This document shows, piece by piece, positions 124 to 57,150 of a stretch of DNA of 57,150 nucleotides. The notes below the pieces were generated by a model. The model was given only the letters and a program-made list of their open reading frames with translations. It had not been told where the DNA came from and searched no databases. The position numbers were made by a program, and so were the translations under genes. The stretch comes from a virus (taxonomy: Duplodnaviria > Caudoviricetes), in IMG/VR virus record IMGVR_UViG_3300032216_000715, positions 1 to 57,150 of that record. One strand, 5' to 3'. Within the stretch, counting starts at the first letter, position 1, and the number at the start of each line of letters is the position of its first letter.

Positions 124-354
124 CGATGCTATTGCGTGTTCTCGTATAGCTATAACTGGCCGATACTGGTCTACTCCGATCAGACCGATAGCTGGTATAG
201 CAACGATGAGAATTATAGCCTCTCGACATCGCGGCACATGAGCCACACCAAACCTCGCGAGAAGGAAGTCCTGTCCGTCGGCTGCCGTGCCTTGATCGAA
301 TTGGTGGCAAACGGTGCCGTCGGCCAAGTCCGTAAGATCGTGGCCGAGGCTTGA
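1..354 (+). CDS. Hypothetical early protein, 3' part (true start GTG at 57010, across the join)
   Basis: Frame is open from GTG 57010 (MSKPKIITNREARNHVEQGVEF...) into ORF 40..354; GTGA overlap with the upstream stop. Confidence 0.75.
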   Translation: MTNREARNHVEQGVEFINNNKTLWGEWREYGPYHPDNAAAERCYCVFSYSYNWPILVYSDQTDSWYSNDENYSLSTSRHMSHTKPREKEVLSVGCRALIELVANGAVGQVRKIVAEA

Positions 355-379
355 CTTATCCCTAAACTACTGTTAACTT
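351..379 (+). promoter_or_regulatory. sigma70-type promoter with extended -10
   Basis: TTGACT-17nt-TAACTT with TG at 371-372; near copies at 2574 and 54871. Confidence 0.75.
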
Positions 380-415: not shown

Positions 416-435
416 TCTTAACTCAAGTTAATACG
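416..435 (+). promoter_or_regulatory. Early palindromic box (TCTTAACTCAAGTTAATACG)
   Basis: One of 8 copies; directly followed by AAGGAG and ATG 449. Confidence 0.85.
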
Positions 436-1445: not shown

Positions 1446-1465
1446 TATTAACTCTAGTTAATTCA
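1446..1465 (+). promoter_or_regulatory. Early palindromic box (TATTAACTCTAGTTAATTCA)
   Basis: Intergenic, directly before AAGGAAGG RBS. Confidence 0.8.
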
Positions 1466-2573: not shown

Positions 2574-2602
2574 TTGACTTATTAACACCTTACTGTTAAG
2601 GT
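2574..2602 (+). promoter_or_regulatory. sigma70-type promoter with extended -10
   Basis: TTGACT-17nt-TAAGGT, preceded by TG; similar to the 351 promoter. Confidence 0.75.
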
Positions 2603-2626: not shown

Positions 2627-3742
2627 ATGCTAGACACCATCGAACGCATCAGCAAAGCCAAGTCCAAGCTGGTGCTTTACCATCCCTTCTTCGCATCGCT
2701 TATCTGTAACATGCCAATGACTGAGGACAACAACATCCCCACCATGGCGACCAACGGCAAGCGCATCCTGTTCAACCGCGAGTTCGTTGACGGCATGACC
2801 GATGACGAGTTGTTGTTCGTGCTGTGCCACGAGGTCGGCCACTGCATGTTCGGCCACATGTTCCGCCGTGGTCAGCGCAACCCACGCAAGTGGAACATCG
2901 CTGGCGATCACATCATCAACGACCTGCTCATCAACGATAAGGTCGGCACCATGCCAGCCGGTGGCTTACACAACGCGGCACTCATCGCCGCAGGTAACGG
3001 CACCACCGATGGCGTCTATGACCTGCTGCCTGACGATGACGGCGGTGACGGCGGTGACGGTTATGATGGCACAGGCATCGACCTGTGCGAGGACGCCGAG
3101 GGTGACGAGGCCGAGCGTTCTGCTGACGAGGCCAAGATGAAGGTGCAGATTGCTCAGGCTGCTCAGGCTGCCAAGATGCAGGGCAAGTTGTCCGCTGGCC
3201 TTGCCCGCCTTGTCGATCAGGTGTTGTCGCCGCAGGTGCCGTGGACTGACGTGCTTCGCCGCTTCGTCAATTCCAAGGCCAAGGTTGACTACAGCTATGC
3301 CCGCCCCAAGCGTAGGTTCCTTGCGTCTAACCTCTACCTGCCATCGCTCAACGGTGAACGCATCGGCGAGTTCGTGGTTGCCATCGACTGCTCCGGCTCC
3401 ATCGACGGTCCTACTCTCAACAAGTTCGCAGCAGAGCTTGTGTCTATCTTCTCAGAAGGTAGGCCAGCCAAGCTGCATGTCGTGTATTTCGACTCCGAGG
3501 TCGTGCATCACGATGAGTTCACGCCAGACGATGACATCCACATTGAGCCGCACGGTGGCGGTGGCACAGCGTTCTCACCGATCTTCGAGTTCGTCAGCGC
3601 ACAAGGCATCGACCCCGCAGGTTGCGTGGTTCTTACCGACCTGTGCTGCAACGACTTCGGCGACCAGCCGCACTACCCCGTGCTGTGGGTGAGCGACTAT
3701 TCCGACCAAGCCCCGTGGGGCGAAGTCATCAAGATCAATTAA
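2627..3742 (+). CDS. Zincin-like metallopeptidase fused to vWA domain (DUF2201-like)
   Basis: HEVGH (HExxH) motif, acidic linker, MIDAS DCSGS, GGGGTAF and VLTD motifs. Confidence 0.88.
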   Translation: MLDTIERISKAKSKLVLYHPFFASLICNMPMTEDNNIPTMATNGKRILFNREFVDGMTDDELLFVLCHEVGHCMFGHMFRRGQRNPRKWNIAGDHIINDLLINDKVGTMPAGGLHNAALIAAGNGTTDGVYDLLPDDDGGDGGDGYDGTGIDLCEDAEGDEAERSADEAKMKVQIAQAAQAAKMQGKLSAGLARLVDQVLSPQVPWTDVLRRFVNSKAKVDYSYARPKRRFLASNLYLPSLNGERIGEFVVAIDCSGSIDGPTLNKFAAELVSIFSEGRPAKLHVVYFDSEVVHHDEFTPDDDIHIEPHGGGGTAFSPIFEFVSAQGIDPAGCVVLTDLCCNDFGDQPHYPVLWVSDYSDQAPWGEVIKIN

Positions 3743-3756
3743 CTCAAGTTAATACG
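3737..3756 (+). promoter_or_regulatory. Early palindromic box (AATTAACTCAAGTTAATACG)
   Basis: Contains the TAA stop of the vWA gene and abuts AAGGAG of the next gene. Confidence 0.85.
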
Positions 3757-4429: not shown

Positions 4430-4454
4430 GACATAACACTTTAAGATGTTTGCA

Positions 4455-4604
4455 GGTGGCAAGGTTGTTCATTGCCTTGCCACCCCGCCAAGCCGGTTTG
4501 AGAGGCGGACATATCACCGGCAGTCTGATGATGAGTTTCCTTTCCTTGGAGATCAGACCGTCAGTCGGGGAGCTGCACCCATTGCAGTGACGTTAAACCC
4601 CGAC
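4455..4604 (+). ncRNA. Candidate structured RNA (four stems plus H-type pseudoknot)
   Basis: Perfect stems 4455-4464/4475-4484, 4485-4489/4504-4508, 4492-4497/4516-4521, 4523-4529/4552-4558 and 4564-4570/4598-4604. Confidence 0.5.
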
Positions 4605-4622
4605 ACCTTTAAGGAGATCAAT

Positions 4623-9284: not shown

Positions 9285-9598
9285 GTATCTTAGGAAATGC
9301 AGCTAATTCCATTGGTGGAATGCTTGGGGCGGCTCCGGCACAGCCCATTCATAAATTACCTTACCCTACTTCCTCCAGCAGGGTGCTGTACCCCGACCCT
9401 TACGCGGTAGACCAGCGCGACATATACTACCCCACAGAAGGTGAATTGCGGTTTCAGGTAAAGTCCGTGGAGAACGGCTACCTCGTGCTAGTCACCACAG
9501 GTAAGAGTATCACGACCTACATCGCGGCAGAGTTCAAGGATGTTCACGACATCATCGACCTAGTTGCTGTAAAGCAGAAGCTGAACGCTTCTGGTTGA
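9281..9598 (+). CDS. Hypothetical protein
   Basis: AAGGAG RBS, ATGA coupling. Confidence 0.7.
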   Translation: MSILGNAANSIGGMLGAAPAQPIHKLPYPTSSSRVLYPDPYAVDQRDIYYPTEGELRFQVKSVENGYLVLVTTGKSITTYIAAEFKDVHDIIDLVAVKQKLNASG

Positions 9599-9623
9599 CA
9601 TTAAACGTTAACAACCTTACACC
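9595..9623 (+). promoter_or_regulatory. sigma70-type promoter
   Basis: TTGACA-17nt-TACACC. Confidence 0.55.
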
Positions 9624-9640
9624 ATTTCAAGGAGATCACC

Positions 9641-9886
9641 ATGGAAGTTCAGCTTGAGCTTTTTCCTGAATTAAAGACAGCGCCTCAGGAAGTGCAGATC
9701 GGCGGCAACCATTACCGCGACATGAGCATAACACCCTCAGAATATATTATCGCTAACGACATCCCATGGTTGGAAGCGAACGCCATCAAATACTTGTCAC
9801 GCCATCGCCGGAAAAACGGCAAGGAAGACATCTTGAAGGCCATCCACTACTGCCACCTCATTCTCGAACACAACTACAAGGATTAA
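9641..9886 (+). CDS. DUF3310 (SaV-like) protein
   Basis: QIGGNHY...NAIKYLSR...KNGKEDILKAIHY signature. Confidence 0.88.
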   Translation: MEVQLELFPELKTAPQEVQIGGNHYRDMSITPSEYIIANDIPWLEANAIKYLSRHRRKNGKEDILKAIHYCHLILEHNYKD

Positions 9887-9889
9887 CTC

Positions 9890-10561
9890 ATGGCCCAGTC
9901 CGTAGCATGGTCTTACTCATCGCTGTCGGCGTTTGAGACTTGCCCGAAACGTTACTACCTCACGAAGGTTTCTAAGCAGGTCAAAGAGCCTCAGACTGAA
10001 GCGACCATGTGGGGCAATCAGGTCCACAAGGCGCTGGAGTATCGCTTGGTTAAGCGTGAGCCGTTGCCAGCAAGCATGGCGATGTTCGAGCCTATCGCAG
10101 CCAAGGTCGCCAAGCGCGCTGAGGGTGCGAAGCTGGAGGCCGAGCAGAAGATGGCGTTGACCAAGAGCTTCGCTCCCACGAGCTGGTTCTCCAAGGATGT
10201 TTGGGTTCGAGGCATCACCGACTTCACCATCACCAAGGGCGACAAGGTTTTCATCGGCGACTGGAAGACAGGCAAGCCTACGCCTGAGTCGGCACAGCTC
10301 AAGCTGACCGCTGCCATGACCATGCACCAGAAGCCATACGTTAAAACCGTCATCAATGCTTTCGTCTGGCTGAAGACAGGTGAGGTAACGCACGAGACAT
10401 TCACCCGCGACGACATCCCCGCTATCTGGCAGGAGTTTAGCCCAAGGGTGCAGCGCCTCGACGATGCCATGGAAGCCAACAAGTGGCCCGCCCGCCCATC
10501 GGGCCTGTGCCGCAAGTGGTGCCCTGTCGGCAAATCTCTTTGCGATCACTGCGGAGAGTAG
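9890..10561 (+). CDS. Cas4/RecB-like PD-(D/E)XK exonuclease
   Basis: SYSSL..FETCPKRY, G..VH, GITD...DWKTG, QLK and C-terminal Cys cluster. Confidence 0.88.
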   Translation: MAQSVAWSYSSLSAFETCPKRYYLTKVSKQVKEPQTEATMWGNQVHKALEYRLVKREPLPASMAMFEPIAAKVAKRAEGAKLEAEQKMALTKSFAPTSWFSKDVWVRGITDFTITKGDKVFIGDWKTGKPTPESAQLKLTAAMTMHQKPYVKTVINAFVWLKTGEVTHETFTRDDIPAIWQEFSPRVQRLDDAMEANKWPARPSGLCRKWCPVGKSLCDHCGE

Positions 10562-13833: not shown

Positions 13834-14127
13834 ATGTTTGAGCTGGCAAAAAAGGCCAACGTGCTGCCGCATGATGTCGCCAAGGCTTTGGGTCTTAACC
13901 GCATCACCGTGAGCCTCTGGTATAACGGGCACAGCAAACCGCACCGACTTCTAACCGATAAGGTGTCATCGCTACTTGACGCGATCACCAAAGCAGTAGA
14001 TGCTGGTGAGCTTCCGATCTCCGCAGACGTTGATCGTCGTGAGCGCAGAAACGAGGTCCAGAAGGTGCTGAACAAGTACATGGATTTAGCGGAAACAGAT
14101 GTTAACCAGACCAGCCCAGTAAGCTGA
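13834..14127 (+). CDS. Cro/XRE-like HTH protein
   Basis: PHDVAKALGLNRITVSLWYNGHSKP HTH pattern; AAGGAG RBS. Confidence 0.75.
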   Translation: MFELAKKANVLPHDVAKALGLNRITVSLWYNGHSKPHRLLTDKVSSLLDAITKAVDAGELPISADVDRRERRNEVQKVLNKYMDLAETDVNQTSPVS

Positions 14128-17176: not shown

Positions 17177-20100
17177 TTACTCTTCTTCGGCCTGAGCTTC
17201 CCTGAAGCGCTTGTCCTTAGCGCGGTACTGGATGCCACCGACAGTCATCTCTTCCTGCTGCCGCTGCTCGGCCTTTGCCTTCAGCAAGATAGAAATCGGC
17301 TGGCGCTTCTTGCCCTGCTTCTCACGAGCATCTTGCATCGTCCGCCACTCGGCCTTGATATCTTCGCGGCGCTTAGGCTGATTATTGTCCACTGCCTGCA
17401 CATACTGCCGCTTAAGCTTCGAGGTCTTGTCTTTGAAGAATTGGTCAAGAACCTTCTCAGCTTCCTGCTTGCGGAACCGCTCAGATGTCTTGACCGACTG
17501 GACACCCAGCAGGGTTTTGGCCGTGTCGAAGTAGCTCACGTCTTCCTTCGAGATTAGCTTGTCGTCCTTGTAGTTGGTCACACCTTCAGTGGCTTCGCGG
17601 TAAGCAGTTACAGCATTGGTGAAACCCTTCGGCAGCATTTTCTCAAGGCCACGGTAATAATCTTCACGGCCTTCCATCAACCCATCATAGGTCTGCTTCA
17701 TGGCAATCCCGATGTCGCGCAGGGTTGCAGGACCAGCGCCAGCTAGATCGAACGCCGCCTTGGCAACGCCCTCCTTGGTGAGTTCCAACTTGGTGTAAGG
17801 CAAGATAGAAAACGTGTTGCCGAAACCCAGCATTCCCGACAAGTTGATGTCAGCCAGTGACGGTACACCGTAGATCAGCAGATCAGCGACAGTCTCGTCA
17901 CCCACAGCCTTACGAATCTGGTTGTCAGCTTCGGCTGGCTCGTCGTCATCTCCGAAGAAGGTGTTGTACAGCCAGATCAAAAGCGCTGCACCCGGCAGAG
18001 AGCGGATGCCGCCCATGAGCGCAGCCGTGCCAAGCTGATACTTGAGTGCTTGACGAGCGATAGCACGTTCTTCTGGTGTGATGTTAGGGTCAGTAAACCC
18101 GTTCTGGATGTGCCGCATCAACAGAGTAATCTGCATGAGCTGGAACTTACGGAACTGGAACGGAATACCGCCAGCGCCCTGCATGTAGCGGGGAGCGTTG
18201 AAGCCGTCGTAGGTTCCCATGGTGTTACGCACTAGGTCAGTGGCGTAATTGATAGCTTTTTGGCGGTTGCCCGTGCGCTCAAGTTCTAAACGATAAGCTG
18301 CAATCGCCGTCACCGTGCGGTTGATGGACTCCTGCTTGCGTGTGAGGTCTTGGGCGACGTTCGTCGCAGCAACACCGACCTGCATTGCCTTGTCGAGGCT
18401 CTCGCCTGTCTGGCCCCACTTCTCGCCAGCGCGTCCGCGCAGAGACTGCATGTTACCAAGGTCTGCGTCGAGGCCTACGTCAATGAGGCTGATGTCTGCC
18501 AGACGCTGAACGACATCGCGTACATCCGCAGGCAGCTCGTCGATATTCAGAGATTCGGTCCACTTGGTGTCTTTCCAAGCCTTGGCGACCTCTTCCATGC
18601 CACCGTTGATGAGCTTCACAGCCTTGGTCAGTCCGCCACGAGCAGCAAGCTCAGGGCCAGCCATCATTGGAACCTGCGTGAAGTTCTGGATGTAGAAAGA
18701 TGGCGAGAACGCAATTTTATAGATCGCGGTCAGGCGCTTCATGGTTTCCACGAGGCTGTTAGGCGAGGCGCGCAAGCTCGACATGTGACGCAGCAGGATT
18801 TCATCGCGGAACTTGCTGGCCTCCATGGGATCAGGTGCGGAGCGAACTTCCTTGTTCATCCCGTTGACCGCTTCCATAAGCATGTCGTTGTTCTTGAGCG
18901 ACGCAATGTGATACGCCATCGCCCGCGACTGCGTGGCAAAGTTACGCACCATGTCCAAATCGCCGCCGTAGACGTTCTTACGCTTAATTTCTGACTTGCG
19001 GGCTGAAGCGTTCGACATCGACATAACATGCAGGTCAGTGATGACCGACTGCAACGTCCGCTTGGCCTGTTCGCTGAGACCGTCACGAGCTTCGAGCGCC
19101 TTGAAGATGCGCTGGAATGCTTGGAACGTTTCACGTCCGCCAGCAATCTCGTTGACTACCGTGTCATCGGTTGTTGCGATAACGCTTGAATACAGCCCCA
19201 AGTCTTTCAGACGCTTAGCTTCGGCCTTGGCTTCTGCCTCAGTCTCAAATTTGTTAAAGTAGTTGTGTTCGGGCGCTGACTGAAGCTCCTGAATGAGCTT
19301 GTTGTCCTTAGCTTCCTGAGCAGCAACATACTCTTCGGACTTGGCGGAAACGGCAAACTTTCCCTGACGGCGCAGAGAAGCATACGGCTTGGTCGGATCG
19401 ACGCGGAACATCAGCGTCTTCTGAGCACGGAGACCTTCACGCTCCCGCTTCAGATCAGCGACCTGCTTCTTGTCGTTGGCAGCTTCAGCCTCTTGGATCA
19501 AACGCTCATACGGCTCGTCGATGGCAGCATCGACTGTATCCATGAGCTGCTGACGAAGATCATTGTTCTCTTGGAACACCTCACGGACGAACAGCTTGCC
19601 TTCAGCAGGCAAAGCATCGAAGCGCTTCTGAAGTTCAGGATCAACCTCATACGAGCCTTCTTTCAGCCAAGAAGGCTTGAACGCCCACTTGCCCGACATC
19701 GTGGAGTCTTGGAGAAGTGTGTTCACAGCTCCACCCACTTCGCGCAGGTTTGCAGGCAGCGAGTCAAAGGTTTCCAAAACCTTGGAAATGCGCTGCTCAA
19801 TTTTGTAGCGAACACGCGCCTTATCCAGCTCGATGTCTTGGTAGACGCCAGCAGATGGGAGGCCAGCCTTCTCGGCAGCCTCGATCAACGTGTGTGTCAT
19901 CGCCTTCCGGGCAAATTTGTCGAAGACTTCATTGAACTTGCGCGCGAGGAAACCCGTCTGGTCGCCCACCGATGGCGGGACGTTTTTGTTTTCGAGACGG
20001 GTCTCGATCTTCTGGTTAACTTCCTCAGCTTTAGCGGCAGTCTTAGCCTCCGATGCAGAAGGGGTTGACTTGGGAGCAGGTGTAGAAGCGGGAGCCGCCT

Positions 20101-23100
20101 TTGAAGCAGGTGCAGAGGCGGGTTGGGGCGTAGGAGCAGGCGCAGTTTGTGAAGCTGGACGCGCAGGAGCTTCAAACTTCGCAGGCAGGTCGCCGCCGCT
20201 CAGGACCTTGGTGCCCTGATTGAGGTCGATCTGGATATGGGAGGGGCCATTGCCTTCCGATATCTTTGTGATGGCATCAGACACCTTTGATCGGGTGGCT
20301 GCGTTGTCTGGCATCGAGAAGGTTTTAGGTGATAGTGAAAGTCCAGTGCTAGCAGGAGCGACACCATCTGGAGCAGTGGTCGCGTACTTAGGCAATTGAC
20401 TGTCTATAAAATCCTTTACCTGTTGCTGAACCCCTTTTTCACTAGCCCGCTGGGGCTGAGAGGCAAGCTGCTCCGCAACCTCATTTAACATCGAGATGAG
20501 GCCGTCGCCATCCGTCACCACGCCGTCACGTATGTACGCCGACACAGCAAAGTGATTGCCGCGATCACCAAATGTCGCGTCGATTGATTTGCGACTCACT
20601 GAAACGCGAATGATGTTCTGACCGTTTCGATTGTGCCTATAAACTTCAATTACTTGATTTGGTAAATTGTTATTAGCTGAAAATTTAGAGTCAGTGACAT
20701 GGTGCCATTCACTGTTAACCCAATCAGGGTTTTTACCGAGATCGACGGTGCGAAGTCCGTCAGGATAATAATCAATCTTGCTGTGGAAGTCGGTGTCTGG
20801 TTTCAGAGCGCCCTTACCCCTTGCGCGCTCTTCCTGACGCTGTGACGACACCTCTTTTTCACCGGACCCTTCGACCTTTTGAACAAAAGTGGTCTTGTAG
20901 TCTTCAGCAGTAAGCTCAAACAACGGGTTGACGACATCAATAAAATGCGCAAGCGCCGACGTGTCGTTAGGCGAGATGCCAAGCAACGAGCGGAACGCAT
21001 CAACAAACTGGCTAAATACTGACTTGCGCGGTCCGACCTCGATGGAGGTTAGATACTCTTTTGCCAAATCATTGGTCATGCTCCACGCCAAGAACTCATC
21101 CATGTTTTTGAACGCGTTAGTCCTGTTTTCATACATGGCCAGCTCGAACTCAGTTAGCCCAGCCTTACCAAGCTTCTTTACGCGACCATTAAAATGGTTA
21201 ATAACTTTATTACGCAAGCTGTTGAGATCGTTGACAAACTGCACCATCTCAGGTGTGCCGCGTCCGTTCCTCACAGCAAGAATCACACCGCTCGAAATAG
21301 CGTGGAGCGCCTCGTGCAAAATTGTCTCAGTGGTATTGCCAGCCCTACCTAGTTTGGGTGAGCGAAGATACACGTCAACTTTCCGTGTTTTCAGGTCAGT
21401 GTCAACCAGCCCACGGGCACTACCTACAGCAATGGCGGACGGAGACTTGTCGCCCTGCTGCAAGATGTGAAGGTTGATATCAGCTCCAGCCTCTTGAAGC
21501 TGTCCAACAAGCTGATTCAAACGATCCGCAAGGCGAGTATCAAACGCGTTGAAATCACCGTTTCTGTTGCTGGCAATATGGTCCAGCAGATCATTCAGTG
21601 TGCGTCCACGGAAAGTGTCGATGTCTACTTCAGTGCCACCAATAATCGAGCCAGATGCAGCGCTCTGTCTTTCTTCGCGGTTTGCGGGGCTAAGCTTGAG
21701 CGCCCCATTCTTTAGGGTGTCACTACGAAGCGATGTCACGTTCTTGTCGTTACGCTCACCTGCGTTGATCGACTGGAAGATGGCTTTGGCTTCAGCGAAC
21801 GCAGGCTTGTTAAAGCCAAGGCGAACAGTGTTGAAGAAGTTACGCATACGCTGAAACACGCCACGGATGCCGGGGGCAATGGCTTTTTGCGTCCGCATCC
21901 ACTCGCGGAACTTCTCGGCGACAGCTTCTTCGATCAGAGACTCTTCGCTCAGGCCCTTCCAGTTGTCGCGTATATGCGTCATCAGATTTTTGTCTGCCTT
22001 GACGATGGCTGTCAAGGTGGCCCACTCATCCTCTGTAATGAGGTTGGCATCACGCATGTAGTGGATCGCTTCGTGGTGAAGCGTCTCAAGGGCTTTAGTG
22101 AAATCGTTGAACACAACGTTGATAAGTGCCCTGAAGCCTGAGCGTACTTCAGCCACACTGCCCGCCTGATACGTGCCTTCGGCCTTACCTTGCGCGGTCT
22201 CGATAAGGTCCGCCACAACTCCCAAGCCAACCTTATTCAGGCCTAGCCGCTCAAGCTCACGCTGTAGTTCGTCAGTCATCGTAGCGCGCTCAGCACGCGT
22301 GGACTCTTTCAGCCTCTCGCCTTTTGCACCTGTCGTTTTGGCCTTGGACTTGTTGCGCGCCGTGGCATCCTTGACGGCCTGCTGAATTACCGCAGGCTCT
22401 ACCCGCATAGCAATCATAGACTTTAACTGCACAGACTGCTGAGGTGTGATCTCACCCATGTCACGAGCGGTGTCGATCTGGCCGCTTACGTTCTGGTAAG
22501 CATACAGCTCCACGCCTTCGAGGTTCGGGACTTCGACAGTCTCTTGCTTGGCCTTGGACTCAGCAATGCGCGCTTCCTGCTCAGCCTTGGCAGCCGCCTC
22601 CCGCTTTTTGGCCTCAGCCAGTTTCTGAGCTGGGGTCTTTGGTTTTACTTTTTTCCTTTTTTCGGCGATTGCCTTGATTTGCTCAAGGCGATTGCTACGG
22701 CCTGCTTCTGCGGCCTGCCGCTTTTCATCAACTCGCTGACGTTCGCTGACACTACCTTTTGGCTTTTGCCCTTCTTTAGCGGCACGAGCTTTCTCCTTGA
22801 GTTTGGTGGATACAGTAACCTTGGGGGCCGGAGCAGCTACAGGCGCAGGAGCCTTAGCCGCCGCAGCCGCAGTAGCCTTGCGAACCTTGCCGGTGGGCGT
22901 GAACATCTCACCCTGCTTGGCAGCACGGCGCTCAGCGCGCTCGTTGGACTTCGCCAGCGCACGATCTTCCTTGGCCTGACGACGGGCAGCGGCTTTCTGC
23001 TGCGCCTCGATGTCGGCGTCGGTCAGCTCACGCTGCATCTCAAGCTGGAAGTTCTCCGGCGTAGTGCGGTTCGTCTTGCCTGCTGGCATTGGCGCAGGCT

Positions 23101-25099
23101 TAGGAGTCATCGACGCTGTTGGTGCACGAGACCCGGCTTCACGAATCTGCGCTTCCATGGAAGCAGTGCCGCTCTCAGCCTGCTGCTGACGCATGTCATC
23201 CTCAGCCAGCTTCTGCTTATACTCGGCAACCGTCATGTCCATTTGAGCGGCTTCTGCCGCCAGACGCTGCTCAGCACCGACCGCAGCCTTGGTCAGCTCA
23301 ATCTGCTCTTGCGCTGTGATTTCAGGGTTAAACCCGTTGCGCTTCAGCAGCGCAGTAAACCGTGCCACAGGGTCACGGGTCTTAGGGTCTTTGGCAACAG
23401 CTTCGAGGAAGCCCTTGCGGTGGATGCCTTCCACTTCCTTGGCAGCGTTGTCGAGCTGCATCTTACGCTCGGCGTCAATGCGTGCCTGCTCTGCCGCAAG
23501 CTGAGCTTGCTCCTGCTGACGCACAGCCTGAACACGGGCAAGCTCGTTGGCATTATTCTGGGCGGCGGTTTCAGCCACCAGTGCAGGGTTGGTCGCACGT
23601 TCGTCTGCGGCCATGGCTTCGTCGCGCAGTGCAACATAATCACCCAGCATCAGCGCGGCCTTAGCCACCAATGGAGCGCGCTGAGCAGCAACCTCTTCAC
23701 CGTGCATGTCGGCGTCAATGTCACGCTTCAAGTTGCGGACGAGGTTAGGGATGGACTTTGCGTTGGGCGAGTTGATCGCACGATGCAGGCGCGCACCAAG
23801 TGACTTGGTGAAATCGTCGGCTTCGGTTTCACCGGCCAATGATGTTATGATGTTGTCGCGGCTGTACAACTGACCCAGCTCATCGAGGGCCATGCGTGGG
23901 TTTTCACGGATGGTGTCCATGTTGACCGTAGCGTTACCGTCTGCATCCTGCACAACAAAGCTTGGCGTGGCAGCGGGCGGAGTCGCCGGAGCTTGCGTCC
24001 CACCTTCGGTATTCAGAAGATCAGAGCCAGCATTTTCCGTGGACGGCTTATTCTCAGCAGCTTTACGATTGCCTGTAAGCAAGCGCACGCCACCGCCCAT
24101 GACGATGCCTCCGCCAAAACCGCCAGCCGCAGAGTCAATATACTCACCCATGGCTTCACGGGAGAACAAGTCTTTACGCGCGCCTGTGCGCTCGATTGCC
24201 GTCTGAACAGCTTCGGTCCCCGCTTCTTCAGCGCCGATCTTCAGCATATCCTTGCCGAACTCTTTAACCCCTTGGCCAAACAGTCGCTTACCAGCTCCGC
24301 TGGCTATGGCTTCAGCAACTTTCGCCTCACCACCTGAGATGGTGTCCAGCGCTGCGGATGCCATCGACGCTCGAATAGCAAGCGGCAGGTCTTGGAACCC
24401 ACGCTCTTTTTGGCTGGCAAGAACCTCATCCAGAGTCGCGCCGTAGCTCAGCCCACCCATGACTGCTTGCGCAGCACGAGGACTACGAGTCAGCAGACCC
24501 GCCCCCAACCCGATTGCGGCGGGGGCAGCGTTGCGTACGCCTTGCTCAAACATGTAACCGGCAGTCTCGCCAAACCCTGCCCCTTGGCTAGGCGCTCGAA
24601 ATGTTCCGGGGCCAGCCAGTGCCTGCTGGCGCTTACCTTCTTCTACAAGAGCTGTTGTTACTGGCTGCACATATGGGCGATAGGCTTCACCAACCTGTCG
24701 CACGGTAGGTTCTGCGGCACGGCGCAAGGCCGCTCCGGCTGTGTTACCTTTTCGAGCCTCTTCACGCGCAGCCGCTGCCTGTTGAGGTGAAGTTCCTGCG
24801 GCGCTAAGAATGTCAGCTACACTTGAAGCCGCCTCGGAAAACGTCTCCGGCAGATATTCTACCAGACGACCGATGCCAGATTCAACGACACCAAGGTTTG
24901 CGCGACCAGCCTTTGTCCAAAAACCCTCATCGGATTCCTTGGTTTCAGGCGCAGGACGTTGAGCAGGTTCAGCCTGTCGAGGTTTGGGAGTGTTATACTC
25001 GAAGCCCGGATCGTCCGAAAACAATCCCCGACGATTTGAAGTGGGGATGCCTTGACGCGGCTTTGCACCGAACCCCGGATCGTCGGAAAACATCGACAT
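17177..25099 (-). CDS. Large polyvalent / ejection (internal virion) protein, 2640 aa
   Basis: Last gene of the virion arm; two HExxH motifs (HEAIH, HEALH); YASLRRQGKF (PLxRFG-like) and C-terminal FQFRKFQ region resembling LPD38-type domains. Confidence 0.75.
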   Translation of the reverse strand: MSMFSDDPGFGAKPRQGIPTSNRRGLFSDDPGFEYNTPKPRQAEPAQRPAPETKESDEGFWTKAGRANLGVVESGIGRLVEYLPETFSEAASSVADILSAAGTSPQQAAAAREEARKGNTAGAALRRAAEPTVRQVGEAYRPYVQPVTTALVEEGKRQQALAGPGTFRAPSQGAGFGETAGYMFEQGVRNAAPAAIGLGAGLLTRSPRAAQAVMGGLSYGATLDEVLASQKERGFQDLPLAIRASMASAALDTISGGEAKVAEAIASGAGKRLFGQGVKEFGKDMLKIGAEEAGTEAVQTAIERTGARKDLFSREAMGEYIDSAAGGFGGGIVMGGGVRLLTGNRKAAENKPSTENAGSDLLNTEGGTQAPATPPAATPSFVVQDADGNATVNMDTIRENPRMALDELGQLYSRDNIITSLAGETEADDFTKSLGARLHRAINSPNAKSIPNLVRNLKRDIDADMHGEEVAAQRAPLVAKAALMLGDYVALRDEAMAADERATNPALVAETAAQNNANELARVQAVRQQEQAQLAAEQARIDAERKMQLDNAAKEVEGIHRKGFLEAVAKDPKTRDPVARFTALLKRNGFNPEITAQEQIELTKAAVGAEQRLAAEAAQMDMTVAEYKQKLAEDDMRQQQAESGTASMEAQIREAGSRAPTASMTPKPAPMPAGKTNRTTPENFQLEMQRELTDADIEAQQKAAARRQAKEDRALAKSNERAERRAAKQGEMFTPTGKVRKATAAAAAKAPAPVAAPAPKVTVSTKLKEKARAAKEGQKPKGSVSERQRVDEKRQAAEAGRSNRLEQIKAIAEKRKKVKPKTPAQKLAEAKKREAAAKAEQEARIAESKAKQETVEVPNLEGVELYAYQNVSGQIDTARDMGEITPQQSVQLKSMIAMRVEPAVIQQAVKDATARNKSKAKTTGAKGERLKESTRAERATMTDELQRELERLGLNKVGLGVVADLIETAQGKAEGTYQAGSVAEVRSGFRALINVVFNDFTKALETLHHEAIHYMRDANLITEDEWATLTAIVKADKNLMTHIRDNWKGLSEESLIEEAVAEKFREWMRTQKAIAPGIRGVFQRMRNFFNTVRLGFNKPAFAEAKAIFQSINAGERNDKNVTSLRSDTLKNGALKLSPANREERQSAASGSIIGGTEVDIDTFRGRTLNDLLDHIASNRNGDFNAFDTRLADRLNQLVGQLQEAGADINLHILQQGDKSPSAIAVGSARGLVDTDLKTRKVDVYLRSPKLGRAGNTTETILHEALHAISSGVILAVRNGRGTPEMVQFVNDLNSLRNKVINHFNGRVKKLGKAGLTEFELAMYENRTNAFKNMDEFLAWSMTNDLAKEYLTSIEVGPRKSVFSQFVDAFRSLLGISPNDTSALAHFIDVVNPLFELTAEDYKTTFVQKVEGSGEKEVSSQRQEERARGKGALKPDTDFHSKIDYYPDGLRTVDLGKNPDWVNSEWHHVTDSKFSANNNLPNQVIEVYRHNRNGQNIIRVSVSRKSIDATFGDRGNHFAVSAYIRDGVVTDGDGLISMLNEVAEQLASQPQRASEKGVQQQVKDFIDSQLPKYATTAPDGVAPASTGLSLSPKTFSMPDNAATRSKVSDAITKISEGNGPSHIQIDLNQGTKVLSGGDLPAKFEAPARPASQTAPAPTPQPASAPASKAAPASTPAPKSTPSASEAKTAAKAEEVNQKIETRLENKNVPPSVGDQTGFLARKFNEVFDKFARKAMTHTLIEAAEKAGLPSAGVYQDIELDKARVRYKIEQRISKVLETFDSLPANLREVGGAVNTLLQDSTMSGKWAFKPSWLKEGSYEVDPELQKRFDALPAEGKLFVREVFQENNDLRQQLMDTVDAAIDEPYERLIQEAEAANDKKQVADLKREREGLRAQKTLMFRVDPTKPYASLRRQGKFAVSAKSEEYVAAQEAKDNKLIQELQSAPEHNYFNKFETEAEAKAEAKRLKDLGLYSSVIATTDDTVVNEIAGGRETFQAFQRIFKALEARDGLSEQAKRTLQSVITDLHVMSMSNASARKSEIKRKNVYGGDLDMVRNFATQSRAMAYHIASLKNNDMLMEAVNGMNKEVRSAPDPMEASKFRDEILLRHMSSLRASPNSLVETMKRLTAIYKIAFSPSFYIQNFTQVPMMAGPELAARGGLTKAVKLINGGMEEVAKAWKDTKWTESLNIDELPADVRDVVQRLADISLIDVGLDADLGNMQSLRGRAGEKWGQTGESLDKAMQVGVAATNVAQDLTRKQESINRTVTAIAAYRLELERTGNRQKAINYATDLVRNTMGTYDGFNAPRYMQGAGGIPFQFRKFQLMQITLLMRHIQNGFTDPNITPEERAIARQALKYQLGTAALMGGIRSLPGAALLIWLYNTFFGDDDEPAEADNQIRKAVGDETVADLLIYGVPSLADINLSGMLGFGNTFSILPYTKLELTKEGVAKAAFDLAGAGPATLRDIGIAMKQTYDGLMEGREDYYRGLEKMLPKGFTNAVTAYREATEGVTNYKDDKLISKEDVSYFDTAKTLLGVQSVKTSERFRKQEAEKVLDQFFKDKTSKLKRQYVQAVDNNQPKRREDIKAEWRTMQDAREKQGKKRQPISILLKAKAEQRQQEEMTVGGIQYRAKDKRFREAQAEEE

Positions 25100-53451: not shown

Positions 53452-53471
53452 TATTAACTCCAGTTAATACG
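53452..53471 (+). promoter_or_regulatory. Early palindromic box (TATTAACTCCAGTTAATACG)
   Basis: Just upstream of TTGACA at 53487; flanked by the direct repeat CGTCCGGCCAT. Confidence 0.85.
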
Positions 53472-53567
53472 TCCGGCCATTAGGTGTTGACATATTAACA
53501 GTAATCTGGTCTAAGGATCGGGCGGCGGCGCTATTGCCTCCGCATAACAACCTAAGGAATATTCAAA

Positions 53568-54173
53568 ATGAACACATTCAATCAGCGCAACGTCCAGTCC
53601 GCCGTCAACGCCTATGCAAAGGCGGAGCTTAACATGCTTGCCTACATTGTGAAGCATGGCGCGGAAGCCAAGGGTGTTGTCGTTACCGCATTGGAATCAA
53701 TGTGGACCAAATCAATTGCACCTCTGTACGTTACCGCCTTTGCCAAGTCGGGGCGCTATGCGGATAAGGCTTCGCGGGCTGTTATGGTTGGCCGCGTTAA
53801 GACCATCTGGCTTGCCAGTGCTTCGGGCCTTAACGTGGACACCAACGCATCATGGGCGGCGGAAGCCAAGCGTCTACAGGAAAGCCTCAAGTCGGCTGGA
53901 ACGGTTAAGGTGACTAAGCGCGGCACGAAAACGGCTGGCAAGGTTGTCACGGCTGGCAAGGCGCTAAACGCTAAGCAAGCAACGGCAGCGGAAGCCAAGG
54001 CCGCTAAAGCCAAGTCTCGCCGTCAGGAAGTCAAAGTCTACACGCCCGCGCAATTGCTTGAGGCGGCGTTTATCGTCACTGGCAACGCGGACCTTTCCGC
54101 CCTGCTAGTCAAAGCAACGCTTGAGCGCCGCGAACAATTGGGCAAAGCTCTTCGCGCCATCTGTGCCGAATAA
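53568..54173 (+). CDS. Basic Ala/Lys-rich early protein (201 aa)
   Basis: TAAGGA RBS, upstream TTGACA and its own terminator; apparently monocistronic. Confidence 0.75.
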   Translation: MNTFNQRNVQSAVNAYAKAELNMLAYIVKHGAEAKGVVVTALESMWTKSIAPLYVTAFAKSGRYADKASRAVMVGRVKTIWLASASGLNVDTNASWAAEAKRLQESLKSAGTVKVTKRGTKTAGKVVTAGKALNAKQATAAEAKAAKAKSRRQEVKVYTPAQLLEAAFIVTGNADLSALLVKATLERREQLGKALRAICAE

Positions 54174-54197
54174 CCCATAACACCCTAACACCAACGG

Positions 54198-54230
54198 AAC
54201 CCGCTAGTCGAAAGACTGGCGGGTTTTTTT
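54198..54230 (+). terminator. Intrinsic terminator
   Basis: AACCCGCTAGTC-GAAA-GACTGGCGGGTT then TTTTT. Confidence 0.9.
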
Positions 54231-54247
54231 GTGCCTATCGTCCGCCC

Positions 54248-54267
54248 TATTAACTGGAGTTAATACG
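54248..54267 (+). promoter_or_regulatory. Early palindromic box (TATTAACTGGAGTTAATACG)
   Basis: Left edge of the non-coding repeat region. Confidence 0.85.
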
Positions 54268-54336
54268 TCAACGCCACCGCGCCGCGATGCGTCTCACCCT
54301 CTGCTGGCCCTGACATGTTATGGTGTTGGGGTTTCG

Positions 54337-54430
54337 TGAGAGAGATATATGGCACGGGCACTGCAATGGCATATGGCACGGCATCATGAGAGAGACATAT
54401 GGCACCATAAACCAAGCCAATATGGCACGG
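54337..54430. repeat. ATATGGCAC direct repeats (4 copies)
   Basis: Copies at 54347, 54371, 54397 and 54420. Confidence 0.8.
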
Positions 54431-54462
54431 GCTGAACAATGGCGGTTTTCCGCCACTTGTGG

Positions 54463-54778
54463 TTGATTTGTCAGAGGATTTCTTGATTTGTCAAACGCAA
54501 CTCCTGTCTGACATTTCAAGAACGCCACGTAAGTGACTGATATTGCGTGGTTTTTTGTTATATCCATTGTTGATATGTATGATTTGTTGATTTGTCAGTA
54601 TATTTAGTAGAGCAATTCGTGGAGGGTGTCTGGGTGTCACGCTCTCTAAGCGCCATAGAATGTTGACTCTCCTCCAGATGGCTGACAAATCAACATTTCA
54701 AACAAATCATAGGTTTTCTGCGGGTTTCGGCTGACAAATCAACTGACAAATCAAGGCCATTTCTGACAAATCAAGAAA
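54463..54778. repeat. Iteron-like TGACAAATCAA cluster (3 reverse + 4 forward); candidate origin
   Basis: TTGATTTGTCA at 54463, 54483 and 54587; CTGACAAATCAA at 54682, 54731, 54743 and 54763. Confidence 0.85.
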
Positions 54779-54870
54779 CCATAACACCAAAACACCCTAA
54801 CACGTATTTCTAACGCGTTAGATTTAAGGCGTCCCGTCCATGCTATGGTGTTAAGCAACCTACACTGCCC

Positions 54871-54899
54871 TTGACTTATCCTAAATATGCTGTTAGCTT
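54871..54899 (+). promoter_or_regulatory. sigma70-type promoter with extended -10
   Basis: TTGACT-17nt-TAGCTT with TG; near copy of the 351 promoter. Confidence 0.75.
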
Positions 54900-54936
54900 A
54901 TAAACAGATGGGGAGGTCCCGTCTGACACAACGACC

Positions 54937-54956
54937 TATTAACTCAAGTTAATACG
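54937..54956 (+). promoter_or_regulatory. Early palindromic box (TATTAACTCAAGTTAATACG)
   Basis: Abuts AAAGG and ATG 54968. Confidence 0.85.
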
Positions 54957-54967
54957 AAAGGCATACC

Positions 54968-55282
54968 ATGTTCAAGTTCAACACTCCGCAGATCGACGCT
55001 CCGCAAGCTGGTCAGGCCACGAGCGAAATCGAGGGCTACTATCGCACACCGGATGGCGTGTCACGCGCCTACCACTGGGAAGGCTTCAGCGATGACGCTG
55101 AGGCTGCGTTGCACGAGCTGTTCGACGCTGGCGTTGTCACTCAGGCCAGCGAGAAGTTCTGGACTCACCAGTGGAACCTGCCCCGTGCGTTGCCGCCCGT
55201 GGTGGCCCGCATCAGTGGTCTGGATACCATCACACGCGACGAGGCTGGTCAGCTCGTCCGTTCGTCCGTCAACATCTGGTAA
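54968..55282 (+). CDS. Hypothetical early protein
   Basis: Follows promoter and box; phage-like codon usage. Confidence 0.7.
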   Translation: MFKFNTPQIDAPQAGQATSEIEGYYRTPDGVSRAYHWEGFSDDAEAALHELFDAGVVTQASEKFWTHQWNLPRALPPVVARISGLDTITRDEAGQLVRSSVNIW

Positions 55283-55295
55283 GGGAGACAAGACC

Positions 55296-55511
55296 ATGTT
55301 CACCAAACGCAAGCCCAAGATCACCGTGCGCCACAAGTCCGCCGCCGAGGCGTGGCGCGATGCTATCAACATGCCAAACGTAAGCGACGAGACTGCGTGG
55401 CAATCATTCGTGGCGACCAAGCCGCAGGATGAACCCGTGTCTGTGTTTGACGTGGCGGGCGACCAGCCCGACATCGAGGACATGATCGCTTGGGCTATTA
55501 ACCGGAGTTAA
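55296..55511 (+). CDS. Hypothetical early protein (71 aa, MFTKRKPK...)
   Basis: GGGAG RBS; stop lies inside a palindromic box. Confidence 0.65.
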   Translation: MFTKRKPKITVRHKSAAEAWRDAINMPNVSDETAWQSFVATKPQDEPVSVFDVAGDQPDIEDMIAWAINRS

Positions 55512-55515
55512 TACG
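55496..55515 (+). promoter_or_regulatory. Early palindromic box (TATTAACCGGAGTTAATACG)
   Basis: Contains the upstream stop and the GGAG SD for ATG 55516. Confidence 0.8.
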
Positions 55516-56052
55516 ATGAAGAGAAACATATTTGAAACCGTGCGCCAGTTGCTCGACAGCTACGATGATGTGACGCGGGGCAATGCCGTCCATACTCATG
55601 GCAACCTGTATGGTGACAGCGTGTCTAACCTGTCTTACCTAATGAACTTGGAGCCAGCCCTGCACGAGCTTATTGAGATGTGCGTGGACAGCGGCATCCA
55701 GATGGAACCGTTGACCCGCGTGATCGACATCACTGGCTGGGAGAGGTCACCGCCGGTGCCTCAGGCTGACGATTCCGTGGCGCGCTATGCTGCCGTCTTT
55801 GCTGCCGATGCGGGGGAGCAGGCCCTCTATCTCAACCGCACCACCGACGAGGTTGCCGACCTGTGCGTGGCCGTGGCCGATGAGGTCGTCAAGCGTAGGG
55901 ATGCTGCGCTTGCGAAGGGCGAGGACTACTATGCCATGGCGTTCGTGGAGACTGCCGCCAGTTGGCTGAGCAACCATCCCCGTGCCACGTTCTTGGAGCT
56001 GTGCCACGTAGGCCAGCGCGAGGTCGATCTTTTGAAGGGAGACGGCAAGTGA
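55516..56052 (+). CDS. Hypothetical early protein
   Basis: 178-aa ORF directly after the box. Confidence 0.7.
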   Translation: MKRNIFETVRQLLDSYDDVTRGNAVHTHGNLYGDSVSNLSYLMNLEPALHELIEMCVDSGIQMEPLTRVIDITGWERSPPVPQADDSVARYAAVFAADAGEQALYLNRTTDEVADLCVAVADEVVKRRDAALAKGEDYYAMAFVETAASWLSNHPRATFLELCHVGQREVDLLKGDGK

Positions 56053-56642
56053 CCATAACACCATCAAAGTTCCGCGCCCGTATCGTGCATGACGAGTCGT
56101 CTGACCGTCCCGACCAAGAGATGGATTTTATGTGCCATATCGGGCTGCCCGATGACATGTATGACAGGGATGACATGGTTATCGAGCTGATCGAGGCCAC
56201 TGATGCGTGGAACGTCGTGAAGGCCATGTGCGACGAGACTGACACCGAGGCTCCCGACATCTGGACCAGCACCAGCCTGCGCCGTGAGTGGGTCGAGGCC
56301 GTTAAGGATGAGGTTCTCATCAAGGTGATCTATCTTCACAACATGCAGCCACTGGTGGCGCACACCACACCCTCAAGGTGTGAGAAGTTTGGCGTAAGCT
56401 GGGACAAGGCATGGGATGCCATGACTGCTGAGACGCGCATGTATGCCCAGTGGGCTGCGGGCGAGGTCTACGGCTACGTCATCGAGGAAGGAAAGACGTG
56501 CGGTCACTGCGACCACACCGTGTGGGAAGAGGTTGACTCTTGCTGGGGTTTTTATGGCCGGAAGATTGAGGCCAATGGGATGCTCGACAATGTGCCGAGC
56601 GATATGAAGGAAGTCCTGCTCAATGCCGAGTGGGTCAATTAA
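56049..56642 (+). CDS. Hypothetical early protein
   Basis: GTGA-coupled start; Y.QW..GEVYGY....DSCWGFYG motif recalled from phage early proteins. Confidence 0.7.
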   Translation: MTITPSKFRARIVHDESSDRPDQEMDFMCHIGLPDDMYDRDDMVIELIEATDAWNVVKAMCDETDTEAPDIWTSTSLRREWVEAVKDEVLIKVIYLHNMQPLVAHTTPSRCEKFGVSWDKAWDAMTAETRMYAQWAAGEVYGYVIEEGKTCGHCDHTVWEEVDSCWGFYGRKIEANGMLDNVPSDMKEVLLNAEWVN

Positions 56643-56656
56643 CTGGAGTTAAGACG
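56637..56656 (+). promoter_or_regulatory. Early palindromic box (AATTAACTGGAGTTAAGACG)
   Basis: Contains the upstream stop and the GGAG SD for ATG 56659. Confidence 0.8.
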
Positions 56657-56658
56657 TT

Positions 56659-56877
56659 ATGATTAAGAAGTTCCGCATTTGGATGGCCGACATGTTCCTC
56701 TCGTTGGCTATGATGGCAGACTTTGACGCAGTGCTGCTGTTCATCATCGAGTCCATGGAGAAAATCGACGCGCAGATCGCCAAGAATGAGACCGCGACGA
56801 ATGAGACCACGCCCCCGAAAAAGCGGGGTCGTCCCAAGGGCCGCAAGGATAGTGTCGGAGGGAAGGCCAGTGCCTAA
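56659..56877 (+). CDS. Small protein with AT-hook-like motif
   Basis: PKKRGRPKG near the C-terminus. Confidence 0.6.
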   Translation: MIKKFRIWMADMFLSLAMMADFDAVLLFIIESMEKIDAQIAKNETATNETTPPKKRGRPKGRKDSVGGKASA

Positions 56878-57013
56878 AACCAAAACACCATATGACGATT
56901 TTGTGGGGTTCAGGATTCGCGTCCTGCCCCCGAAATCTCGCCTCGTCACACAACTCCGTGAGAGAGATGCCCGCGACAGGTGCAACGCAGCAAAGAAAGG
57001 AATCGTTGAGTGA
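56870..57013 (+). CDS. Small basic hypothetical protein (47 aa)
   Basis: GTG 56870 after GGAGG; overlaps both neighbours. Confidence 0.45.
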   Translation: MPKTKTPYDDFVGFRIRVLPPKSRLVTQLRERDARDRCNAAKKGIVE

Positions 57014-57027
57014 GTAAGCCTAAGATC

Positions 57028-57150
57028 ATAACAAACCGCGAGGCCCGCAACCACGTCGAGCAGGGCGTGGAGTTCATCAACAACAACAAAACCCTCTGGG
57101 GCGAGTGGCGTGAGTATGGACCATACCACCCCGACAACGCAGCAGCCGAG
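57028..57150. repeat. Terminal direct repeat, copy 2
   Basis: Identical to 1-123. Confidence 0.95.

Follow-up and report, generated by a model that had tools for sequence, protein, structure and literature searches.

The DNA analyzed here, called the window throughout, is the whole of IMG/VR virus record IMGVR_UViG_3300032216_000715 (Duplodnaviria; Caudoviricetes), a complete virus record of 57,150 bases with direct terminal repeats. The 123-base repeat (1–123 = 57028–57150) closes the record into a circle of 57,027 bp, and an open reading frame (ORF) that starts with GTG at 57010 crosses the join and ends at 354. Genes on the plus strand run from ~53.5 kb over the join to 17.1 kb. Small uncharacterized genes come first, followed by genes for an AAA ATPase, a DUF3150-like protein, a DUF2201 protein and a helix-turn-helix (HTH) protein, and then by a family A DNA polymerase, a PD-(D/E)XK nuclease, an SNF2 helicase and a DUF927 primase-helicase. 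The minus strand carries the late genes, among them one for a portal that shares 39% identity with the portal of Rhizobium phage RHph_TM3_14A. The subject of this report is an AT-rich palindrome of 18 bases in this 54% G+C genome, hereafter the box, eight copies of which lie in the early part of the plus-strand arm (Table 1).

Sequence and placement of the boxes

The consensus TATTAACTNNAGTTAATA has eight matches at ≤2 mismatches in the 57,150 bases, where 0.02 would be expected. None of 100 dinucleotide shuffles reaches eight matches, the highest shuffle count being 1, and the backwards control pattern has no match at all. Three copies are perfect (53452, 54248 and 54937), four have one mismatch (416, 1446, 3737 and 55496) and one has two (56637); the window holds no further copy at this threshold. 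The 14-base core TTAACTNNAGTTAA is exact in seven of the eight, and the remaining copy reads TTAACC. Rather than being scattered over the genome at background frequency, the boxes occupy a section of 7,329 bp, all of it in the early arm. The series stops behind the DUF2201 gene, which leaves the replication and late genes without boxes, and the boxes therefore mark one temporal class. An earlier model reading of the letters alone, here the sequence-only reading, had listed eight copies within about 7.3 kb and none elsewhere, and all eight were found at exactly the coordinates it gave. We conclude that the box pattern is real, that chance does not account for it and that it extends to related uncultured phages as a group.

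Each box is an 8-2-8 dyad, in which two TATTAACT half-sites surround a free 2-bp center. We aligned 19 copies, the eight of the window and 11 from three relatives, and found 12 invariant columns, namely C at −1, TTAAC and AGTTAA. The TTAAC/GTTAA element is invariant in both arms in 19/19 copies; the center varies freely, and the two outermost bases of either arm are loosely kept. In the window, C stands immediately 5′ of the box in 8/8 cases and CG follows in seven. The polar 3′ CG of the sequence-only reading thus holds for all copies except the one at 1446, which carries CA.

Most boxes are closely fitted to gene junctions. ORFs end at 3742, 55511 and 56642, within the boxes at 3737, 55496 and 56637. 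A Shine–Dalgarno sequence (SD) follows immediately 3′ of the boxes at 416, 1446, 3737 and 54937, while those at 55496 and 56637 carry GGAG in their center, with ATG 2 and 4 bases past the box, respectively. The box at 54248 also has a GGAG center, but without a start codon behind it. The three upstream TAA stops, the four abutting SDs and the two central GGAGs are all as the sequence-only reading had described them. It was also right that boxes bracket the first early gene, e1 (53452 and 54248), and the repeat region (54248 and 54937). The perfect copies, boxes 1–3, are those free of coding constraint, and boxes 1 and 2 lack a ribosome-binding site (RBS) altogether; such copies are called orphans below. 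Between boxes 1 and 2 lies a self-contained unit, consisting of e1 with a promoter and a terminator, and e1 is the sole gene that has its own promoter and terminator and is bracketed by boxes. Across five box-bearing genomes, boxes with an SD and a start codon within ≤45 nt number 6/8, 6/10, 6/8, 4/7 and 4/11, and each of the five also has several orphans, grouped at the start of the arm.

Table 1. Boxes, putative control elements and genes of the window, with their coordinates
Feature	Coordinates	Strand	Context
Box 1 (perfect, orphan)	53452..53469	+	17 nt upstream of TTGACA, 98 nt upstream of e1 start; no RBS behind
Box 2 (perfect, orphan)	54248..54265	+	After e1 terminator, before iteron region; duplicated in L101 and L102
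Box 3 (perfect)	54937..54954	+	37 nt after P2 −10; then SD AAAGG, ATG 54968
Box 4 (1 mismatch)	55496..55513	+	Contains e3 TAA stop and central GGAG SD; then ATG 55516
Box 5 (2 mismatches)	56637..56654	+	Contains e5 TAA stop and central GGAG SD; then ATG 56659
Box 6 (1 mismatch)	416..433	+	36 nt after P3 −10; then SD AAGGAG, ATG 449 (AAA ATPase)
Box 7 (1 mismatch, tail CA)	1446..1463	+	Between AAA ATPase and DUF3150 genes
Box 8 (1 mismatch, last copy)	3737..3754	+	Contains DUF2201 gene TAA stop; then SD AAGGAG, ATG 3770
P1 (promoter-like, for e1)	53487..53500	+	TTGACA, then box half-site TATTAACA; poor −10
P2 (putative promoter)	54871..54899	+	TTGACT, 17-nt spacer, TGT-TAGCTT (extended −10)
P3 (putative promoter)	351..379	+	TTGACT, 17-nt spacer, TGT-TAACTT; −35 overlaps upstream ORF stop codon
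P4 (promoter-like)	2574..2602	+	TTGACT, TATTAACA, TGT-TAAGGT; half-site in spacer, no full box behind
e1 intrinsic terminator (manual reading)	54200..54230	+	10-bp GC-rich stem, GAAA loop, T7 run
e1 (first early gene)	53568..54173	+	Between boxes 1 and 2; helical, conserved basic linker
e2 (variable cassette)	54968..55282	+	Absent or replaced in relatives
e4 (variable cassette)	55516..56052	+	Directly behind box 4; other genes there in relatives
e5 (conserved Cys-containing early protein)	56049..56642	+	phrog_6186; 35% identity to sister lineage
e6 (72 aa)	56659..56877	+	Hydrophobic N-terminus; C-terminal AT-hook-like PKKRGRPKGRK
MoxR-type AAA ATPase	449–1435	+	Profile match
DUF3150 match	1482–2336	+	Weak, sub-threshold
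DUF2201 metallopeptidase/von Willebrand factor A protein	2627–3742	+	
HTH protein	4446–5384	+	Pfam
2640-aa protein	17177–25099	−	End of late arm; C-terminal quarter PLxRFG/DarB-like

Lineage-specific palindromes and cassette exchange

Metagenome contigs with 67–90% identity to the window around the box carry this box too, at orthologous junctions. Contig L100 has equivalents of boxes 3 to 7, while L101 (the same record as L012) and L102 have box 1 and the duplicated box 2, so the orphan boxes are kept as well. Contig L103, which repeats three of the L100 boxes, was excluded from all counts. An exact-pattern scan of IMG/VR gave 81 loci; the only relative among them was L012, and the others were single matches or A+T-rich contigs. 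Searching with an e1 profile for more genomes of the window's lineage, lineage A, returned only L012 again. Contigs of relatives also come from a run labeled freshwater metagenome; no RNA run is listed as containing the phage. Megablast of the early arm against isolated phages gave no match.

In a sister lineage, whose AAA ATPase is 52% and whose portal is 78% identical to that of the window, the TATTAACT box is missing. Its three records (L086–L088) have instead [A/T]TTAATCCGATTAAA, in 10, 7 and 8 copies, placed in one arm of ~7 kb plus one copy behind the DUF2201 gene. Several of these boxes stand at junctions that match those of the window, such as the ones preceding the AAA ATPase gene and the DUF3150 gene. 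Further away, genome G005 carries 14 copies of TGTAGCA-NN-TGCTACA and a second remote genome seven copies of TCACGAC-W-GTCGTGA, in each case in one arm; two genomes of intermediate relatedness have no recurrent palindrome. Confinement of the boxes to one arm is found in four related genomes besides the window.

The box therefore differs between lineages (TTAAC-N4-GTTAA versus TTAAT-N3-ATTAA) while its position is kept. Lineage-specific palindromes at early junctions point to a phage-encoded rather than a host partner, and a change of box sequence at a kept position would be expected for a co-evolving phage factor. These observations bear on the possibility that a host factor binds the boxes, for instance a nucleoid protein or a global regulator preferring AT-rich dyads, or that the boxes are strand-specific nick sites. 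The A+T richness of the window's boxes speaks for this, and co-oriented sites on one strand are typical of localized nick sites in some phages. However, related phages with similar genes carry different boxes, some of them G+C-balanced, or none, which fits a phage-encoded partner better, and the contigs show no mark of nicks. We regard host-factor or nick sites as very improbable. The proposal of the sequence-only reading that a dedicated phage system acts on the early genes gains support from the early-arm confinement, from the retention of the same box at orthologous junctions in L100, L101 and L102 and from the swapped palindromes of the sister lineages.

The boxes also coincide with breakpoints. 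Three pairwise comparisons within the sister lineage give 32 BLAST segment ends inside the arm, and 14 of them fall within a 49-nt interval around a box, where 1.87 would be expected (binomial p about 1e-9). One upstream sequence and its box recur in all three records with different genes behind them: gene Y in L087; gene X, a second box and Y in L088; and gene Z, a box and X in L086. Whole units differ exactly from box to box: L087 lacks 3924–4580 of L088, and an additional unit is present in L086 at 7210–7402. A 171-bp insert in L086 begins 9 bases into a box and has a complete box at its far end. Inter-box lengths differ between the window and L100 (559 versus 195 nt, 1141 versus 665 and 807 versus 1641), and the AAA interval is kept (1030 versus 1022 nt). 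Gene order also differs between the lineages. Finally, in run comparisons made with assembled contigs, five contig breakpoints from three runs and two studies fall 1–6 nt past the ATG behind box 3 or box 4.

The variable cassette e2 departs from this pattern. It is flanked by a 9-nt direct repeat, CCATGTTCA, at 54966–54974 and 55294–55302, which comprises SD-distal bases and first codons. The e2 indel is bounded by this repeat at two start codons and not by two boxes, and from its sequence we read e2 as an insertion at a start codon by microhomology. Apparent joints from 53471 to 54292/54295 are not deletions. They rest on 21 letters of a box and reflect an ambiguity of placement between boxes 1 and 2.

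These data permit a reading in which recombination is the selected function, and the boxes are linkers or sockets for cassettes of box, RBS and ORF, similar to the PeSL (promoter–early stem-loop) elements of T4-type phages or to integron attC sites, possibly helped by a phage nuclease or annealing system. The enrichment of segment ends, the box-to-box units, the breakpoints behind boxes 3 and 4 and the shifting inter-box lengths and gene order all favor it. The phage also encodes the PD-(D/E)XK nuclease and a small protein with a sub-threshold VRR-NUC match. Nevertheless, the boxes stand at gene junctions, where the mosaic joints of most phages fall, so part of the enrichment is built in, and the e2 indel is not box-bounded. 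No tyrosine or serine recombinase was found, as PF00589 and PF00239 have no match in six frames of the window, with controls positive in 14/14 and 12/14 genomes. Moreover, second-order selection for evolvability would be a weak force to keep 14 bases invariant. We therefore judge recombination as the selected function to be quite unlikely, and cassette shuffling is probably a consequence of the boxes. The cassette boundaries that the sequence-only reading had offered as one of three options are directly backed by the comparison of relatives, with one exception: gene content between boxes does vary among relatives, as it had suggested should be checked, and breakpoints do cluster at boxes, whereas the e2 indel does not follow the rule.

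Promoters, RNA folds and a candidate binder

We read four promoter-like units, P1–P4, manually with the pattern TTGAC[A/T], 17 nt, TGn-TAnnnT; a scan with the strict sigma-70 consensus lists none of them. In that scan no promoter-like site overlaps any box, and the arm shows no excess of promoters or terminators. The host-type promoters are elements separate from the boxes. P2 and P3 share a 31-nt unit (54871–54899 and 351–379, respectively) that occurs twice where 0 would be expected, with P4 as a third version; as a family, the units cover 351–386, 54871–54906 and 2574–2602. In both, the unit is followed by a G+C-rich 5′ hairpin of differing sequence, then by the box and then by the SD. Directly behind the −35 of P1 and P4 lies the half-site core TTAAC; the P1 version is also present in L101 and L102, in the opposite orientation. 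The −10 region CTGTTAAnnnATTAACA of the promoter units is kept in the sister lineage too (L086–L088, upstream of the L088 box at 3924). The e1 terminator is missing in the relatives of runs X2 and X3.

The layout of the genome invites a comparison with coliphage N4, in which three hairpin promoters with G+C-containing 5–7-bp stems and 3-nt loops are read by a T7-like polymerase domain in gp50. The boxes could likewise be phage-specific promoters, DNA hairpins read by a virion-carried RNA polymerase, with transcription starting at the G behind the box. As in N4, short inverted repeats stand just upstream of early genes with very short leaders, at one end of an N4-like layout: the early and replication genes are read rightward, the late genes leftward, and the late arm closes with a virion-type protein of 2640 aa. 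This protein has a match to the PHROG family labeled virion RNA polymerase (E 3.6e-14). A sister box, if folded, would form a 6-bp stem closed by a 3-nt loop, and the distance from box center to the conserved G is 10.5 nt, compared with 11 nt in N4. However, the polymerase match is limited to residues 1220–1397, which align to N4 gp50 2194–2330 around HExxH, a region beyond the polymerase core, and the rest of the protein is low-complexity or of PLxRFG type. The profile, phrog_2206, is missing from four of five related genomes, and the fifth matches only profile positions 118–421. PF00940 is absent from the window under conditions in which the control finds N4 gp16. In addition, host-type promoters with 5′ hairpins lie ~30 nt upstream of boxes 3 and 6, and a start behind the box would cut off the SD in two boxes and in sister copies. 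Unlike N4, the window has eight copies, some of them carrying the SD, and no T7-like polymerase domain was found in it. Since neither the N4 gp50 alignment nor the search of relatives uncovered a phage RNA polymerase, we dropped the N4-type promoter idea, which we consider the least probable of those weighed here.

Several properties of the 2640-aa protein are worth recording. It has two HExxH motifs (at about residues 1010 and 1255) and long Ala/Lys/Glu-rich stretches. Many podophages have large virion proteins of the PLxRFG/DarB-like type. What this protein has in common with N4 gp50 are non-polymerase parts, so its PHROG label 'virion RNA polymerase' misleads.

The placement of the boxes relative to SDs makes a role in mRNA a natural suggestion. 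On this account, a short AU-rich hairpin or motif at the SD would be bound by a phage translational repressor of the RegA or coat-protein type, or cut by an endoribonuclease that would divide the polycistronic early RNA into units. Six of the eight boxes either precede an SD by 2–6 nt or have a predicted loop that contains GGAG, all point in the direction of the genes and have polar flanks (C ... CG), and boxes 3 and 6 fall within the 5′ leaders behind P2 and P3. The central C of the sister boxes and the palindromes of RHph_TM3_14A, both described below, agree with it as well. Folding, on the other hand, gives little to recognize. As RNA, the box hairpin reaches only −2.3 to −3.3 kcal/mol, with a 5–7-bp stem, a 4-nt loop and no T run. 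Seven of the eight folded box stretches are indistinguishable from shuffles (z −0.65 to +0.40), and the box 1 stretch alone stands out (z −3.87; 1/200 shuffles folds as well). Over 15 distinct copies, five of the eight pairs never vary and the other three depart only through unpaired cells. All nine variant cells break pairing, none of the eight pairs shows a two-sided, compensatory change, and 500/500 shuffles do as well. Boxes 1 and 2 have no RBS, box 1 preceding a promoter and box 2 following a terminator, such orphans are kept in relatives, and no Rfam family matches the window. On these sequence grounds the RNA-hairpin reading, the second option of the sequence-only reading, is disfavored, and we consider action in mRNA unlikely.

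Taken together, the weak folds, the lack of covariation, the perfect copies free of coding constraint, the orphans and the half-sites in promoters favor recognition of duplex DNA by a dimer. Our leading reading, which we hold tentatively, is that the boxes are dyad operators for a lineage-specific, phage-encoded dimeric regulator of the early arm, with the recombination seen at the boxes as a by-product. Host RNA polymerase would start early transcripts at the separate sigma-70-type promoters P1–P4, and the regulator would bind the double-stranded boxes beside or just downstream of promoters and in the short gaps between early cistrons. There it may throttle or shut off early transcription through promoter-proximal and intercistronic roadblocks. 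Box 1 and the half-site in P1 suggest that the binder would also control e1, itself a candidate for the binder. Because the boxes would be the only sequence common to unrelated early genes and co-infecting relatives, homologous recombination would join cassettes there and shuffle the early gene set.

The evidence on e1 concerns its distribution and its predicted oligomeric state. It has 14 homologues, all in the window's lineage, among them proteins encoded on contigs of 55,438 and 53,894 nt, with a variable N-terminal half and a highly conserved C-terminal half that includes the basic motif KSRRQ. A more distant homologue exists in the sister lineage: hhalign aligns it over 145 columns (E 3.5e-5, 72% probability), and the profile of lineage-A e1 proteins matches it at E 4e-7 and 4e-6. 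The gene is inverted there and heads the leftward arm, and a box still lies ~128 nt upstream of its start. A two-copy model of e1 gives a homodimer score of 0.76, against 0.00 for the best control, a mark reached by 20/30 proteins solved as pairs and by 1/23 solved as single chains; contacts agree to at least 87% between runs, and the predicted local distance difference test (pLDDT) value of the partner is at least 71. The model supports a symmetric e1 dimer and lends no support to DNA binding itself. The AF2 model of e1 has a pLDDT of 62.7. We take e1 as the candidate box-binding protein.

A number of observations weigh against operators bound by an e1-like dimer. Intergenic placement by itself is what a compact genome would lead one to expect of any repeated site. 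The flanks are polar, with C at −1 in 19/19 copies and C, not G, at +1 in 18/19, which a symmetric dimer does not explain, and the sister boxes have C in the center of the sense strand in 25/25 copies. Three of the 14 G005 copies have a center one base shorter or longer, a spacing that a rigid dimer should not tolerate. The cultured relative RHph_TM3_14A (MN988472; L126, L090 and L127) has 47 copies of TACC-N5-7-GGTA genome-wide, where about 4 would be expected. This element, (G)TTACC-N-GGTAA(C), is at gene junctions in many cases, lies in both arms and has a spacing of 5 to 7. Its 3′ arm carries the SD, its SD-like purine loops turn with gene direction, and from its sequence it looks like an RNA-level feature. 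For e1 itself, no DNA-binding fold or family was recognized with Pfam, PHROGs, Foldseek, VIA or Atlas: Pfam and PHROGs give 0 families, and Foldseek against the PDB finds nothing at E ≤ 0.001. The best hit of a wide VIA search is a helical bundle (Z 6.3, root-mean-square deviation 3.0, 112 residues), and helical domains of the TetR family follow at Z 5–5.9. As this is the range of any helical bundle, we do not name e1 as TetR-like. The Atlas leads, DUF3102 (0.80) and a Streptomyces phage repressor family (0.78), fall below the 0.9 bar.

Other candidate partners were considered. The AT-hook-like protein e6 was rejected as the partner of the boxes, as the sister lineage has no RGRP protein of at least 50 aa. 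KGRP is seen in the basic linker of the sister-lineage e1 homologues. In L088, the products of 1804–2019, 9375–9707 and 9865–10194 resemble by eye a ribbon-helix-helix, a winged helix and a DnaA domain IV-like HTH, respectively, and these small proteins, encoded in or just behind the box-bearing arm, are alternative candidates for the binder of the sister box. The sequence-only reading had pointed to two HTH proteins; the first (4623–5384 there, 4446–5384 here) is supported by Pfam, and that at 13834–14127 has no Pfam match. The 13834–14127 protein, e1 and e5 are shared only with the sister lineage, and their gene-presence correlation amounts to a single phylogenetic event and is weak evidence.

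Comparison with known systems and further features of the window

The closest parallel to the favored operators is found in the stoperators of Cluster A mycobacteriophages, which are 13 bp long and obey an orientation rule. Both systems consist of many identical short sites in short gaps or over stop and start codons, co-oriented with transcription; in the window, three boxes contain TAA and six precede an RBS. A roadblock on host RNA polymerase would be a further likeness, which for the boxes is only proposed. Stoperators differ in being asymmetric and spread genome-wide, whereas the boxes are 8-2-8 dyads limited to the 7.3-kb early arm. Cluster A phages are temperate, with a repressor and an integrase; in the window there is no integrase match, and no repressor family was found among the ORFs scanned. 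The absence of an integrase and of a cI/cro switch had been noted in the sequence-only reading and is borne out, for cI/cro among the ORFs scanned. Its first option, a stoperator-like operator or roadblock network, is the one that we favor as far as junction position and co-orientation are concerned, and the dyad symmetry and the restriction to one arm set the boxes apart from that model. In PMC9283540, Cluster A repressors are described as terminating elongation at numerous genome-wide sites, and the stoperators as being bound by a monomeric two-domain immunity repressor.

PeSLs offer a second parallel, as they are repeated motifs flanking variable early ORFans, and indels or replacements between close relatives are bounded by them; mini-circles formed by exchange between neighbors are a further PeSL trait. 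The box differs in being 18 bp long, in containing no promoter, the promoters being separate, and in folding at about −3 kcal/mol with no T run. PMC2839356 defines each PeSL of T4-type phages as a strong sigma-70 promoter plus a stable terminating stem-loop and reports that these elements flank variable early ORFans and bound indels, with no dedicated recombinase known.

Considering how the boxes could combine regulation with exchange, an integron-like socket system for early genes may be envisaged. Each lineage would have its own 15–18-bp palindrome and a cognate dimer, here e1, which would both regulate the sockets and promote cassette exchange. The viruses would then be uncultured, freshwater-type and podophage-like, the early genes presumably would serve host takeover or anti-defense, and e1 would belong to a fold family without known relatives. 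We consider this combination decidedly unlikely.

In their form, the boxes recall the KorB OB sites of IncP plasmids, the operators of P1 C1 and those of lambdoid Cro/CI, which are 13–18-bp palindromes with a free or single-base center that serve many operons through one replicon-encoded dimer. They differ in that no KorB/ParB, C1 or Cro/CI homologue was detected among the scanned ORFs, and in that most boxes of the window lie between cistrons and not at promoters. Our literature search found no description of such palindromic early-region boxes. If the boxes are operators of one phage protein, an apparently non-temperate phage would possess a regulatory network with many sites. It could be compared with stoperators or the KorB regulon, except that it would be dyad-based and limited to one temporal gene class. 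The specificity would have been re-set several times in related lineages, which would provide a natural series for the co-evolution of protein and DNA site. Early-gene swapping at boxes, which the comparative data show, is a concrete, testable route for the turnover of the most variable genes of these phages, and the box is short enough for oligonucleotide and reporter work without phage culture.

The remaining features of the window are minor. No tRNA was found in it, and a sequence search of the PDB gave no match below E 0.05 for the 2640-aa protein, e5 or the 4446–5384 protein. The GTG start of e5 overlaps the e4 stop (GTGA), and the protein has a CxxC and the motif DSCWGFYG. Positions 54334–54790, which lie between boxes 2 and 3, form an origin-like non-coding region with TTGATTTGTCA-type repeats, about eight copies in two inverted groups, and with five ATATGGCAC repeats, one of which, TGGCAC-N5-CTGCA at 54350–54365, resembles a sigma-54 promoter. 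Finally, a second repeated motif, (C)ATAACACC, lies near gene ends and starts on both strands, at 52511, 54176, 54780–54802, 56054, 56880 and other positions, and AACACC, which may be compared with it, stands immediately 5′ of ATG in L100 and RHph_TM3_14A.

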